IMG/VR virus record: IMGVR_UViG_2667527522_000001
DNA length: 50,608 nucleotides
Strand: one strand, 5' to 3'
Source of the DNA: a virus
Taxonomy: Duplodnaviria > Heunggongvirae > Uroviricota > Caudoviricetes
Translations under genes and position numbers: made by a program
The notes under the pieces: model-generated
What the model saw: only the letters and a program-made list of their open reading frames with translations
The model's database searches: none
What the model was told of the DNA's origin: nothing
Shown: piece by piece, positions 23,565 to 26,674 of the stretch
Layout of the letters: every line of letters begins with the position of its first letter
How positions within the stretch are numbered: position 1 is the stretch's first letter

Positions 23565-23924
23565 ATGGATTATTCACAGTTAAGTGATTTTGAAATTAAC
23601 AAGCGAGTGGCAATTTGCTGTGGATTTGCTCCCGAAGATTGCGAAATCGCAAAGTTGGGAACATCAATCGTTGGTGTTGAGTGGGATGACGAAACTGGTT
23701 ATGCAATAAAAACGGTTGATTACTGTAAAAGCCCATCAGACGCAGAGCCGATTATCGTAGAGAACAGAATTGGAATTATTCCAGCACCAGAAAATGGATT
23801 ATGGAAGGCAGCGCATAGAAAAGTTGGCGGTGATAGTACCCCATATCATATGACTCAAGATGAAAACCCACTCCGCGCTGCCATGATTGTCTTTCTCATG
23901 ATGCAGGACGCCAATAATGCTTAG
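23565..23924 (+). CDS. Hypothetical nin-region protein
   Basis: ORF 23523-23924; probable start MDYSQLSDFE. Confidence 0.45.
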   Translation: MDYSQLSDFEINKRVAICCGFAPEDCEIAKLGTSIVGVEWDDETGYAIKTVDYCKSPSDAEPIIVENRIGIIPAPENGLWKAAHRKVGGDSTPYHMTQDENPLRAAMIVFLMMQDANNA

Positions 23925-24632
23925 CCCATCCCAATCCATTCAATACCAGAAAGAAAGCGTCGAGCGAGCTTTAACGTGCGCTAACTGCGGTCAGAAGCTG
24001 CATGTGCTGGAAGTTCACGTGTGTGAGCGTTGTATATATGAATGCTTAAATATGGTGGAACATAATGAGAAATATAAGCAACATAGACGAATTAAGAAAT
24101 AAATTATCATATGATGATGTTTTAGGTGTACTTAGATGGAAAGTGTCTCCTTCTAATAATGTTAAGGTTGGCAGTGTTGCTGGTTACATTAGGAGTGATG
24201 GTTATAGGATGTTAACTATCGATGGTGTAATTACTTATGCTCACCACGTTATATGGATGATAAATAATGGTGAGATTCCATTAGGGTATAAAATTGATCA
24301 TATAAATGGAGTAAGGTCAGATAATAGGCTATCTAATCTTCGATTGGTTACACACCAACAGAATGCACAGAACCAAAAGAGAAAAATAACCAATTCGTCA
24401 GGAGTGACTGGAGTATATTTCAATAAAGAGAGATGTAAGTGGATTGCGAATATATGCGTAGATGGGCGCACCAAATATCTTGGAATATTTGCTAGCATCA
24501 TTGACGCTATTGCAGAAAGGAAGAGGGCAGAAAAAGAACTGGGTTTTCATGAAAACCATGGCAGACCATAACTGCGCAGAACTGATGAGCGATCCGAATA
24601 GCTCAATGTACGAGGAAGAAGACGATGAGTGA
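23917..24632 (+). pseudogene. ninF: ninF split by a homing-endonuclease insertion
   Basis: N-terminal 39 codons to ...HVCERC at 24033; matching C-terminal CAELMSDPNSSMYEEEDDE at 24573-24632, in frame if 24034-24572 is removed. Confidence 0.6.
24065..24571 (+). CDS. HNH homing endonuclease with AP2-like DNA-binding region
   Basis: HHVIW...IDHINGVRSDNRLSNLRLVTHQQN HNH motif; own SD GGTGGA. Confidence 0.8.
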   Translation: MRNISNIDELRNKLSYDDVLGVLRWKVSPSNNVKVGSVAGYIRSDGYRMLTIDGVITYAHHVIWMINNGEIPLGYKIDHINGVRSDNRLSNLRLVTHQQNAQNQKRKITNSSGVTGVYFNKERCKWIANICVDGRTKYLGIFASIIDAIAERKRAEKELGFHENHGRP

Positions 24633-24837
24633 TTACCTGAAATGGTATCTCTGCCACCGCTGGTTAATTAAGTTTGCTGTAAAAGACTGGATGACAGCGG
24701 ATGCCAACAAGCTTAAGCAAAGAAAAGACTATTACTACGCCAGAATGAAGGAAAACTACTGCTCAATTCGCACTCGCATATTTATTAAAAAAGACCTTCA
24801 GTCAATTCTTCAATTGCGAGGGAAGGTAAATGGCTAA
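24625..24837 (+). CDS. Small hypothetical protein
   Basis: 70-codon ORF. Confidence 0.35.
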   Translation: MSDYLKWYLCHRWLIKFAVKDWMTADANKLKQRKDYYYARMKENYCSIRTRIFIKKDLQSILQLRGKVNG

Positions 24838-25120
24838 CCTACGCAAAGAAGCGCGCGGCAGAGAATGCCAGGTACGTATTTACGGCGTATGCAATGGCAA
24901 TCCTGAAACTACAGTTCTGGCACATTACCGGATGGCTGGAATTTGCGGAACGGGAATGAAGCCTGACGACCTGATCGGCGCATGGGCTTGTAGCGCGTGT
25001 CGCGATGAAATCGACCGACGCACCCATAATCTCGACAACAAAGACGCCAGACTTTACCACCTCGAAGGCGTGATCAGGACGCAGGCGATACTGCTGAAGG
25101 AGGGGAAGATTAAGTCATGA
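24830..25120 (+). CDS. Cys-rich nin-region protein (YbcO-like)
   Basis: MANLRKEARGRECQVRIYGVCNGNPETTVLAHYRMAG...CSACRDEIDRR. Confidence 0.55.
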   Translation: MANLRKEARGRECQVRIYGVCNGNPETTVLAHYRMAGICGTGMKPDDLIGAWACSACRDEIDRRTHNLDNKDARLYHLEGVIRTQAILLKEGKIKS

Positions 25121-25641
25121 ACGGTAAAAGATATCCAACACAAAAAGAAATCAATGAATTGTATGAATATAATAGCGAAACAGGTTTGTTTATATACAAG
25201 AGAAGAGAAAGTGCAAGAGAGTGCTGGAATTCAACATATGCCGGTAAGATTGCTGGTTCTATAGATGAAAAAGGATACGTTCGTATATCTGTAAATAAAA
25301 AAGTTTGTCGAGCTCATAGAATCGCATGGATATCCTTTTATGGAAGTGAACCTGATGGGGAAATTGACCACATAAATGGAGTTAAAAGCGATAACAGAAT
25401 ATGCAATTTGCGCGTTGTAGATGATAAACAGAACTCAAGGAACAGAAAAAAGCCTATTAATAATCGCTCTGGAGTAATGGGGGTTGCCTACTATAAGAAG
25501 AATAAAAAGTGGGGCGCATATATAAACAGTGATAATAAAAAGATATTTCTTGGATTATACGATGACATATCTCTAGCCGTTAATGCCAGAAAATTGGCGG
25601 AATCACGATTGGGGTATCACCATAATCATGGGAGAGGATAA
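25117..25641 (+). CDS. Second HNH-AP2 homing endonuclease, paralog of 24065-24571
   Basis: HRIAW...IDHINGVKSDNRICNLRVVDDKQN; fits exactly between neighbouring stop and start codons. Confidence 0.8.
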   Translation: MNGKRYPTQKEINELYEYNSETGLFIYKRRESARECWNSTYAGKIAGSIDEKGYVRISVNKKVCRAHRIAWISFYGSEPDGEIDHINGVKSDNRICNLRVVDDKQNSRNRKKPINNRSGVMGVAYYKKNKKWGAYINSDNKKIFLGLYDDISLAVNARKLAESRLGYHHNHGRG

Positions 25642-26004
25642 ATGGCAGAATACAGATTCACACTTCCGTACCCACCGTCGCTGAATACCTACTGGCGAAG
25701 ACGGGAAAGCCAATATTACATAAGCGACAAAGGCCAGAAATACCGAAAAGACGTTCAGCAAATCATCCGCCAACTCAAGTTAGACATTTTCACCAAATCA
25801 CGACTCCGTATCAAAGTCATCGCAGACGTTCCGGACTCCCGCCGTCGCGACCTCGACAACATCCTGAAAGGTTTACTCGACTCCCTTATCCACGCCGGAT
25901 TTGCGGAAGACGACGAGCAATTCGATGACATTCGCGTAATTCGTGGCGTGAAAGTACCAGGCGGAAGGCTTGGAATAAAAATCACCGAACTGGAGAACGC
26001 ATGA
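25642..26004 (+). CDS. rusA: RusA Holliday junction resolvase
   Basis: 120 aa; PPSLNTYWRRRESQYYISDKGQKYRKDV...DLDNILKGLLDSL. Confidence 0.85.
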   Translation: MAEYRFTLPYPPSLNTYWRRRESQYYISDKGQKYRKDVQQIIRQLKLDIFTKSRLRIKVIADVPDSRRRDLDNILKGLLDSLIHAGFAEDDEQFDDIRVIRGVKVPGGRLGIKITELENA

Positions 26005-26189
26005 ACGCCACAATTCAAACGATACCAGAGCTTCTTATCCAGACACGAGGCAATCAGACCGAAGTGGCAAGGATGCTTTCCTGCGCAAGAGGAACAGTGC
26101 TCAAGTACAACCGAGACAGCAAAGGCGAGCGTCACGTAATAGTTAACGGCGTCCTGATGGTCAAACAGGGCAAGAGGGGAAGGCGATGA
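26001..26189 (+). CDS. NinH-like protein
   Basis: ...GNQTEVARMLSCARGTVLKYNRD...IVNGVLMV resembles lambda NinH. Confidence 0.65.
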   Translation: MNATIQTIPELLIQTRGNQTEVARMLSCARGTVLKYNRDSKGERHVIVNGVLMVKQGKRGRR

Positions 26190-26674
26190 GCATAAGAGAA
26201 CTAAACCTCACCAAAGAACAGCACGAGTGGCTGAATGGCTGGCTTGAACTGTGGGGCGCATGGGTTTATTCAGGTCGTCTGGAAAAGCGCATGAGCAGCG
26301 TAATAGCTAAGTTCATGGAGAGCGTAGAGCCGGGAAGAGTTATGATAAGGCCAATGTGTAATGATGATGATGGAATGTTGATTTCTCAGGTCGTCGATTC
26401 CGTCATGTACATTGACAAGAAAGCCTTTGGCATCCTCCTCAGCTACTACGCCCACGGCTCTTCCAAGCACGCCATTGCATCTTACTATCATCGCGTCGCA
26501 AGACCTCGCAAGATGTTATGCCGGGGCGGCGGGCGCATTCAAAAACCATCGCTCGCAACCTGTCGACGGGAAGTTGACGAAATCCTCAATGCCTCGTTGT
26601 TTATGATTTACCCGGTTCTGGATAGTGCGTTTAAAAACCGGAAACGTGTAGAGAAAATTAAACATGTAGCATAG
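26186..26674 (+). CDS. Q: Late-gene antiterminator Q
   Basis: 162 aa; LELWGAWVYSG motif; sits just upstream of the late promoter and lysis genes. Confidence 0.7.
   Translation: MSIRELNLTKEQHEWLNGWLELWGAWVYSGRLEKRMSSVIAKFMESVEPGRVMIRPMCNDDDGMLISQVVDSVMYIDKKAFGILLSYYAHGSSKHAIASYYHRVARPRKMLCRGGGRIQKPSLATCRREVDEILNASLFMIYPVLDSAFKNRKRVEKIKHVA

Follow-up and report, generated by a model that had tools for sequence, protein, structure and literature searches.

The question raised by this locus is how a small endonuclease gene came to stand between ybcO and rusA in the nin region of an Escherichia coli prophage, and what has carried it from one phage genome to another. The gene, called here HNH-2, lies in the IMG/VR virus record IMGVR_UViG_2667527522_000001, whose whole stretch of 50,608 nucleotides (nt) is referred to as the window. 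The window represents an E. coli prophage of the P22-like (Lederbergvirus-type) group, the late half of which is 95-96% identical to phiv205-1 and CUS-3; many lambdoid and P22-like phages in GenBank have nin regions that match its own. The answer that we consider likely is that HNH-2 is a free-standing HNH-AP2 homing endonuclease cassette seated at the ybcO|rusA junction and directed at a target near the 5' end of rusA, and the best-supported account of its distribution is that the cassette would have spread recently through diverged nin regions. The gene and its two neighbours are as follows.

25117..25641, plus strand: HNH-2, 174 amino acids, a free-standing gene of the HNH-AP2 homing-endonuclease type; a 525-base-pair (bp) insertion relative to empty alleles.
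24830..25120, plus strand: ybcO (YbcO/DUF1364, putative nuclease), matching Pfam YbcO with an expectation value (E) of 7e-44; left flank and homology arm.
25642..26004, plus strand: rusA (Holliday-junction resolvase), Pfam RusA E 5e-16; right flank and predicted target gene.

The first-pass annotation had read this interval as an endonuclease gene wedged between a YbcO-like gene and rusA, and both the open reading frames (ORFs) and the Pfam matches bear out all three genes. The tight packing that it described is also present: the HNH-2 ATG (25117-25119) shares bases with the ybcO TGA, forming ATGA at 25117-25120, and the HNH-2 TAA (25639-25641) is followed directly by the rusA ATG at 25642. 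HNH-2 matches PHROG 99 ('HNH endonuclease') with E 4.5e-63. It belongs to the nin operon, with Q and the lysis genes downstream, and genes for recombination proteins and nucleases (ninB, ybcO and rusA) cluster around it; rusA, 363 nt long, is intact in every allele compared. Three predicted nuclease genes, encoding YbcO/DUF1364, HNH-2 and RusA, are consecutive at 24830-26004, and the first of them is itself labelled 'HNH endonuclease' by PHROG 131 and by several RefSeq phage records. The RefSeq 'HNH endonuclease' at the ybcO-rusA locus of, for example, HK620 is YbcO and not HNH-2, so that counts of presence and absence based on annotation could mislead.

Comparison at the nucleotide and protein level revealed that the junction is usually empty. 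Among 94 GenBank phages, lambdoid or P22-like, with flanks 96-98% identical to those of the window, none carries HNH-2: ybcO abuts rusA, leaving a clean 525-bp gap in the alignment, as in vB_EcoP-683R2, where the two genes overlap by ATGA. A tblastn search of deposited phages with HNH-2 gave a best match below 60% identity. The ybcO-rusA locus occurs in about 995 of 5,426 complete E. coli genomes (1,106 places), and HNH-2 in 32 of them; it is absent from about 97% of related phages. All 32 E. coli copies are full-length, at least 98.7% identical and adjoin a DUF1364 gene, with no partial, truncated or degenerate copy among the matches in the 5,426 genomes. IMG/VR yielded 18 copies that are complete and one that is truncated where its contig ends, every one at the ybcO|rusA junction.

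A search of 5.8 billion proteins placed HNH-2 in one isolated cluster of 145 sequences, and all the named members among the 40 listed come from E. coli. The next relatives outside the cluster are 49-50% identical, with no intermediate between 98% and 49% identity in that search; they lie in T7-like phage contigs, between a helicase and a DNA polymerase gene and with no rusA nearby. Among GTDB species representatives the best match reaches only 42% identity. HNH-2 and HNH-1, a related gene upstream that is treated below, form islands of low guanine-plus-cytosine (GC) content, at about 35.5% (35.6% and 35.5%), against 53% in ybcO, 49% in rusA and 46% in the window as a whole. Judged from its composition (35.6% GC against about 50% in the flanks) and from its nearest relatives, 49-50% identical and in T7-like contigs, HNH-2 appears to be foreign in origin.

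The anatomy of the insertion was defined by a base-by-base comparison of annotated genes in 7 occupied and 8 empty ybcO-linked alleles, which uncovered a marked difference between its two sides. In the ybcO flank no position consistently distinguishes occupied from empty alleles, and the polymorphisms are common to both classes. The rusA flank holds 10 fixed differences, at nt 4-6, 12-15 and 18-20 of the gene, with none elsewhere in the flanks: nt 4-20 read GCAGAATACAGATTCAC in every occupied allele and A(A/G)(C/T)GAATAT(C/G)AGTTTGT in every empty one. Sites 21, 27, 33 and 40 are partly linked to HNH-2, and beyond about nt 45 the polymorphisms are shared again. Two features of the rusA 5' end follow from these comparisons and from the diversity figures given below.

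25645..25662, plus strand: variant tract, rusA nt 4-21, GCAGAATACAGATTCACA, encoding A-E-Y-R-F-T and linked strictly to the presence of HNH-2.
25642..25686, plus strand: right part of a low-diversity block, rusA nt 1-45, where the sole segregating site, nt 45, is the block edge.

The linkage extends well beyond the alleles aligned. The full-length 87-nt rusA 5' end of the window type was found in exactly the 32 HNH-2-positive genomes among the 5,426; in IMG/VR, HNH-2 precedes all 19 exact occurrences of the variant tract; and no variant tract lacking HNH-2 was found behind ybcO in the 5,426 E. coli genomes or in IMG/VR. From this pattern, nt 4-21 of rusA are predicted to be an immunity and obligatory co-conversion tract, and the target of HNH-2 is probably the rusA 5' end, within 25642-25686. 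A related sequence exists in E. coli FDAARGOS_944 (locus L006, 1495-1857), where rusA stands directly behind an Ant antirepressor gene with neither ybcO nor an HNH gene; its 5' end (ATGAATGAGTACAGATTCACG) resembles the HNH-2-linked variant without being identical to it, and this allele may represent a donor lineage or a naturally resistant allele. As a separate observation, empty alleles of 17 E. coli genomes (e.g., L007 1481-1843, L008 and L009) combine window-type sequence at rusA nt 21/22-86 with empty-type sequence at nt 4-20; these mixed alleles may reflect ancestral polymorphism, or they may be left over from conversions that ended before reaching the endonuclease gene.

The position of the insertion also bears on how rusA would be translated. 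Two short runs are relevant here.

25099..25105, plus strand: GGAGGGG, a Shine-Dalgarno-like run inside the 3' end of ybcO, with the HNH-2 ATG 11 nt downstream.
25630..25638, plus strand: GGGAGAGGA, the last sense codons of HNH-2 and a Shine-Dalgarno-like run 4-12 nt upstream of the rusA ATG.

The GGAGGGG run precedes the rusA ATG in empty alleles and the HNH-2 ATG in the window, and HNH-2 and the empty-allele rusA share their first bases, ATGAACG. HNH-2 ends with GGG AGA GGA TAA, and GGGAGAGGA is the same in all 25 occupied loci, as is the junction sequence. We infer that the cassette rewires translation, HNH-2 using the former ribosome-binding site and ATG of rusA while the last codons of HNH-2 would supply rusA with a replacement site. 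No plus-strand promoter or terminator was predicted in 23800-26300, the totals being under the shuffled expectation, and HNH-2 is, on this prediction, a promoter-less cassette.

A second key set of observations came from the diversity of 25 occupied loci, a sample that is neither random nor fully independent. The backgrounds of these loci are varied, with 7 types just upstream of ybcO, 17 further upstream, 2 types of Q and 7 types downstream; the HNH-2 copies that they carry are all intact and only 0-8 nt apart. HNH-2 together with rusA nt 1-45 has 16 segregating sites in 570 positions, compared with 102 in 605 in the immediate flanks (Fisher p 5e-17), and none at all from HNH-2 position 498 through rusA nt 44. 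Synonymous diversity (piS) is 0.023 in HNH-2, 0.115 in ybcO and 0.105 in the rest of rusA. HNH-2 is under purifying selection: the ratio of nonsynonymous to synonymous diversity (piN/piS) is 0.14, and its variant codons comprise 7 nonsynonymous and 12 synonymous changes, which departs from the neutral expectation with p 5e-5. HNH-2 travels, together with the first 45 nt of rusA, as a low-diversity block through many nin-region mosaics. Since synonymous diversity five times below that of the flanks, across many backgrounds, calls for a recent and rapid spread, drive explains the pattern better than drift does.

It should be considered that such a block, lying in five-fold more diverse flanks, fits homing with co-conversion and fits recent passive spread too. 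HNH-2 might have entered once, by illegitimate recombination, and then have been shuffled by general homologous recombination, its protein being inactive or acting on something that has no part in this spread. A single insertion in an ancestor would lead one to expect both an unchanging site and identical junctions, the nin regions of lambdoid phages are notoriously mosaic with no need of an endonuclease, the shared ATGAACG start could mark a microhomology junction, and occupancy is low (about 3%). However, a useless gene would be expected to decay, and instead all 25 copies have kept an intact frame and the conserved catalytic residues, piN/piS is low, and 5,426 genomes yielded no truncated copy. 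The linked substitutions are, moreover, concentrated on one side, directly beside HNH-2, and the five-fold trough in synonymous diversity over many backgrounds points to a recent rapid spread. Taken together, these observations make a purely passive history unlikely.

Several points nevertheless weigh against reading HNH-2 as a driving endonuclease with a target in rusA. The invariant site would equally result from one ancestral insertion that was later passed on through ordinary homologous recombination in the conserved flanks, and passive spread of this kind, if recent, would give a low-diversity block as well; the composition of the sample of 25 loci described above adds to this. In the deposited phages searched, HNH-2 was never found in an isolated phage and is known from prophages only. 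The target site is placed by linkage alone, and, because the free-standing endonucleases of T4 usually cut hundreds of bp from their own genes (PMC2988022), the cut need not fall in the 45-nt block. In addition, the existence of a rare HNH-free allele such as that of L006, similar to the nt 4-21 variant, means that this variant could be hitch-hiking donor sequence instead of an immunity determinant.

The nature of the protein is a further element of the argument. Its two domains occupy the following positions.

25309..25440, plus strand: HNH_3 nuclease core, residues 65-108, with conserved D84-H85, N97 and N109.
25468..25611, plus strand: AP2-fold DNA-binding domain, residues ~118-165, three strands and one helix.

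The nuclease core is recognized by Pfam HNH_3 (PF13392) at 60.6 bits, over a cut-off of 24.8 bits, with E 1.1e-16 across residues 65-108. D84, H85, N97 and N109, the HNH catalytic set, are invariant in an alignment of 72 family sequences and align with the D-H...N...N residues of I-HmuI (1u3e); in the AlphaFold model the core is built from strands 82-85 and 98-101 and helix 103-108, in keeping with the beta-beta-alpha core of such enzymes, in which an Asp comes before the His that acts as general base and one Asn is structural and another binds metal. The AP2 assignment required more than one line of evidence. HNH-2 alone misses the Pfam AP2 (PF00847) threshold, with a partial match over residues 118-142 at 14.9 against 33.3 bits (E 0.034). 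The Pfam AP2 model is matched at E<=1e-3 by 34 of the 72 HNH-2 relatives, and a search with the family profile picks up the AP2 domains of WRI1 (E 2.9e-9) and TEM1. In the AlphaFold model (pLDDT 94) the C-terminal domain comprises strands 123-126, 131-138 and 141-148 and helix 151-165, and Foldseek related it to the AP2 domains of TEM1 (7et4/7et5), WRI1 (7wq5) and AtERF1 (1gcc), with a root-mean-square deviation (rmsd) of 1.2-2.6 A; the TEM1 superpositions have an rmsd of 1.2-2.6 A over 46-55 columns, and AtERF1 has a TM score of 0.67, target-normalised. For the model of the whole protein, the top hit was I-HmuI (E 4.2e-4), with plant AP2 domains next.

The AP2 label, weak from the single protein, is thus secured at the level of prediction by the family profile, the Pfam matches of the relatives and the modelled fold. 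HNH-2 would accordingly combine an I-HmuI-like HNH core with a C-terminal AP2 DNA-binding domain, as members of the HNH-AP2 family do, in agreement with the architecture first assigned to it from the letters. An HNH followed by an AP2 domain is described as a recognised homing endonuclease architecture by Magnani et al. (2004), as cited in PMC10448857. The label 'homing-type' is likewise in keeping with PHROG and PADLOC, which give only HNH or homing endonuclease, and with I-HmuI as the best solved relative.

Other kinds of element were considered and set aside. HNH-2 is not an intron, an intein or an RNA element, being a separate ORF between a complete ybcO and a complete rusA, and no Rfam intron was found in the window at the gathering threshold. 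As to other RNAs, Rfam matched, on the plus strand, the isrK Hfq-binding RNA at 2063-2140 (68.9 bits) and a C4 antisense RNA at 2221-2308 (81.1 bits). A component of a defence system was rejected given that PADLOC yields only 'homing endonuclease' models and NCBIfam gives no match. A terminase-associated HNH protein of the HK97 gp74 type, which would be encoded beside the terminase and portal genes and serve in packaging, was rejected as well: HNH-2 is in the nin operon, matches HNH_3 and is absent from 97% of related phages.

All these features could be integrated in a model in which the cassette is transcribed with the nin operon upon induction or infection and HNH-2 is translated from the ribosome-binding site and ATG that were formerly those of rusA, its last codons giving rusA a new site. 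The enzyme would then nick or cut lambdoid genomes free of HNH-2 in or near the rusA 5' end, most likely within codons 1-15. Repair of the break from the occupied allele would copy the endonuclease gene, and the short stretch up to the cut site, into the recipient, and the occupied allele would be protected by the insertion itself and by the substitutions at rusA nt 4-20. The outcome would be that this nin segment is inherited preferentially when phages infect a cell together or a phage meets a prophage, leaving a sharp mosaic boundary at rusA. The endonuclease-mediated mosaicism that the first-pass annotation had suggested can be read in this sense from population patterns, namely a low-diversity cassette in many backgrounds with a linked tract on the target side.

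A different benefit could be imagined for the same cleavage. HNH-2 might be kept for harming competing phages or prophages with a susceptible rusA, or for feeding breaks to NinB/YbcO/RusA recombination. Marker exclusion by HNH homing endonucleases is documented for T4 and for Skunavirus phages (PMC2988022, PMC12724721), and nuclease genes are found at the boundaries of genetic exchange between phages (PMC10448857). The embedding of HNH-2 among ninB, ybcO and rusA and the purifying selection acting on it are in line with such a role. This proposal is not truly exclusive of homing, exclusion being the population-level face of the same cleavage, and PADLOC matches are limited to 'homing endonuclease' models. 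Moreover, YbcO and RusA do not depend on HNH-2 as a partner, given that about 97% of related phages lack it. It is established from lambda biology that a lysogen keeps its nin operon repressed, so HNH-2 would provide no standing defence to a prophage. We consider it improbable that either role is what keeps HNH-2 in place.

Since a similar gene lies 546 bp upstream, it was also necessary to ask whether HNH-2 was born within the nin region.

24065..24571, plus strand: HNH-1, 168 amino acids, another member of the family, which interrupts ninF within its 3' end.

The two proteins are 40% identical over 164 residues by BLASTP (E 2e-37) and have the same domain order, and the alignment displays the common motifs IDHINGV(K/R)SDNR and LG(Y/F)H.NHGR, that is, the core and the tail by which they had been called paralogous. 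This resemblance, together with their short distance and equally low GC content, is what a local duplication of HNH-1 followed by divergence would leave. However, HNH-1 ranks only 54th of the 71 relatives of HNH-2, and HNH-2 37th of 71 for HNH-1. Only 3 genomes have both genes (32 and 44 when counted singly), HNH-1 is found in just 2 of 24 other HNH-2-positive loci, and at least five other family members occur at other sites in related prophages. The low rank of HNH-1 and the mostly separate occurrence of the two genes indicate independent acquisition, so that 'paralogous' holds in the sense of membership in one family and not as a duplication within the genome, an origin that appears barely credible. 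Nor is HNH-1 a constant resident: it was found in none of 219 phage records sharing ninF and in 44 of the 5,426 E. coli genomes, in which PGAP calls pieces of NinF to either side of it. The comparison of nin regions proposed in the first-pass annotation therefore shows that neither endonuclease gene is fixed across related phages.

The surroundings of HNH-1 have some features of their own. Its insertion in ninF (23917-24632) falls just after the second CxxC; ninF gains a new 3' end (CIYECLNMVEHNEKYKQHRRIKK) that overlaps the start of HNH-1, and the original 3' fragment of ninF (NCAELMSDPNSSMYEEEDDE) persists downstream of HNH-1, in the frame of the ORF 24462..24632. Between this remnant and ybcO there is a 70-amino-acid ORF at 24625-24837 (PHROG 3973, unknown function; GC 39%), which in other HNH-2-positive prophages is replaced by a KilAC antirepressor gene or by a gene for an 89-amino-acid hypothetical protein, this position being a variable slot directly upstream of ybcO.

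At least five more HNH-AP2 lineages, 24-44% identical to HNH-2, were observed at other sites in related E. coli prophages (L002 1301-1912, L019 4783-5295, L028 4966-5457, L031 4789-5409 and L039 2977-3528). Their sites are before ninB, downstream of Q and after the lysis genes, and the nin/Q/lysis region looks like a hotspot for the family. In E. coli MS 115-1 (L010 706-1215), a prophage without ybcO, an HNH endonuclease with a NUMOD4 motif, of a different family, lies between ninF and a hypothetical gene upstream of rusA. A bolder proposal, which we advance tentatively and regard as somewhat short of an even case, is that HNH-2 has been caught early in the invasion of temperate phages, as the occupancy of about 3%, the lack of decayed copies and the single cluster of 98-100% identity, separated from all other relatives by a gap between 50% and 97%, would suggest, and that the co-conversion tract of rusA nt 1-45 pinpoints a cut in the conserved N-terminal coding region of the resolvase. 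Together with the at least five other lineages at nin/Q/lysis sites, genes of this sort would actively generate the sharp boundaries between lambdoid modules, acting also between incoming phages and resident prophages.

The knowledge of phage homing endonucleases comes mostly from virulent phages (T4, SPO1, ICP1 and Skunavirus). HNH-2 is a member of the HNH-AP2 family in temperate P22-like and lambdoid E. coli prophages and has left an unusually readable natural record, made of hundreds of near-identical empty sites, 32 occupied ones in different mosaics and a 570-bp low-diversity block ending inside rusA. With a predicted target within about 45 nt, it offers a tractable case in which to ask whether endonuclease drive contributes to the mosaic boundaries of nin regions. 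It would not alter thinking in the field; the gene is already annotated generically in RefSeq as an HNH endonuclease, and the proposed mechanism is standard. Mobile genes of this kind are known, and HNH-2 is an ordinary, though very clean, example.

Among characterized proteins, the closest solved relative of HNH-2 is I-HmuI from Bacillus phage SPO1 (PDB 1U3E), with E 0.0096 for the single protein and 1.9e-7 for the family profile. Both proteins are 174 amino acids long, and the N-terminal beta-rich region and the HNH core align. I-HmuI is encoded in a group I intron and has a C-terminal helix-turn-helix DNA-binding domain, whereas HNH-2 stands as a gene of its own between two others and carries an AP2 domain in place of the helix-turn-helix. 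The superposition of the whole chains is poor (rmsd 15.5 A, TM score 0.42), so the arrangement of the domains or the C-terminal half differs. A nearer parallel in architecture is provided by the HNH-AP2 homing endonucleases, including the 'IPA-HNH' genes of ICP1, with an N-terminal HNH and a C-terminal AP2 domain as in HNH-2 (PMC10448857). Members are known from phages, cyanobacteria and protists, and the AP2/ERF domains of plants are considered to derive from this family, according to Magnani, Sjolander & Hake (2004) as cited in the same article. The HNH domains of ICP1 have diverged too far to be recognized by the Pfam HNH_3 model (PMC10448857), which HNH-2 matches well; and the HNH-2 lineage lives in temperate P22-like and lambdoid prophages and not in virulent phages.

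In its genetic setting, HNH-2 is closer to MobA and MobE of T4, which are likewise promoter-less cassettes between conserved genes, transcribed with the host operon (PMC2988022, PMC2790892), a lack of promoters that is general for the seg and mob cassettes of that phage (PMC2988022). MobA and MobE target a neighbouring conserved gene, co-convert the flanks and nick one strand (PMC2988022, PMC2790892). They have no detectable close sequence relationship with HNH-2, and their C-terminal domains differ from its own. The cut sites in T4 are hundreds of bp from the gene, whereas the linked tract of HNH-2 suggests a few tens of bp, nearer to the pattern of intron-encoded enzymes. Lastly, lactococcal Skunavirus phages have I-HmuI-like HNH endonucleases that group according to their insertion site, differ in number and position among close phages and cause marker exclusion (PMC12724721). 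Those phages are virulent and belong to other hosts and another phage group, and their exclusion was measured experimentally, whereas HNH-2 is known here from sequence alone; with at least six HNH-AP2 lineages at six sites, the nin regions of E. coli prophages present a picture like that of Skunavirus.

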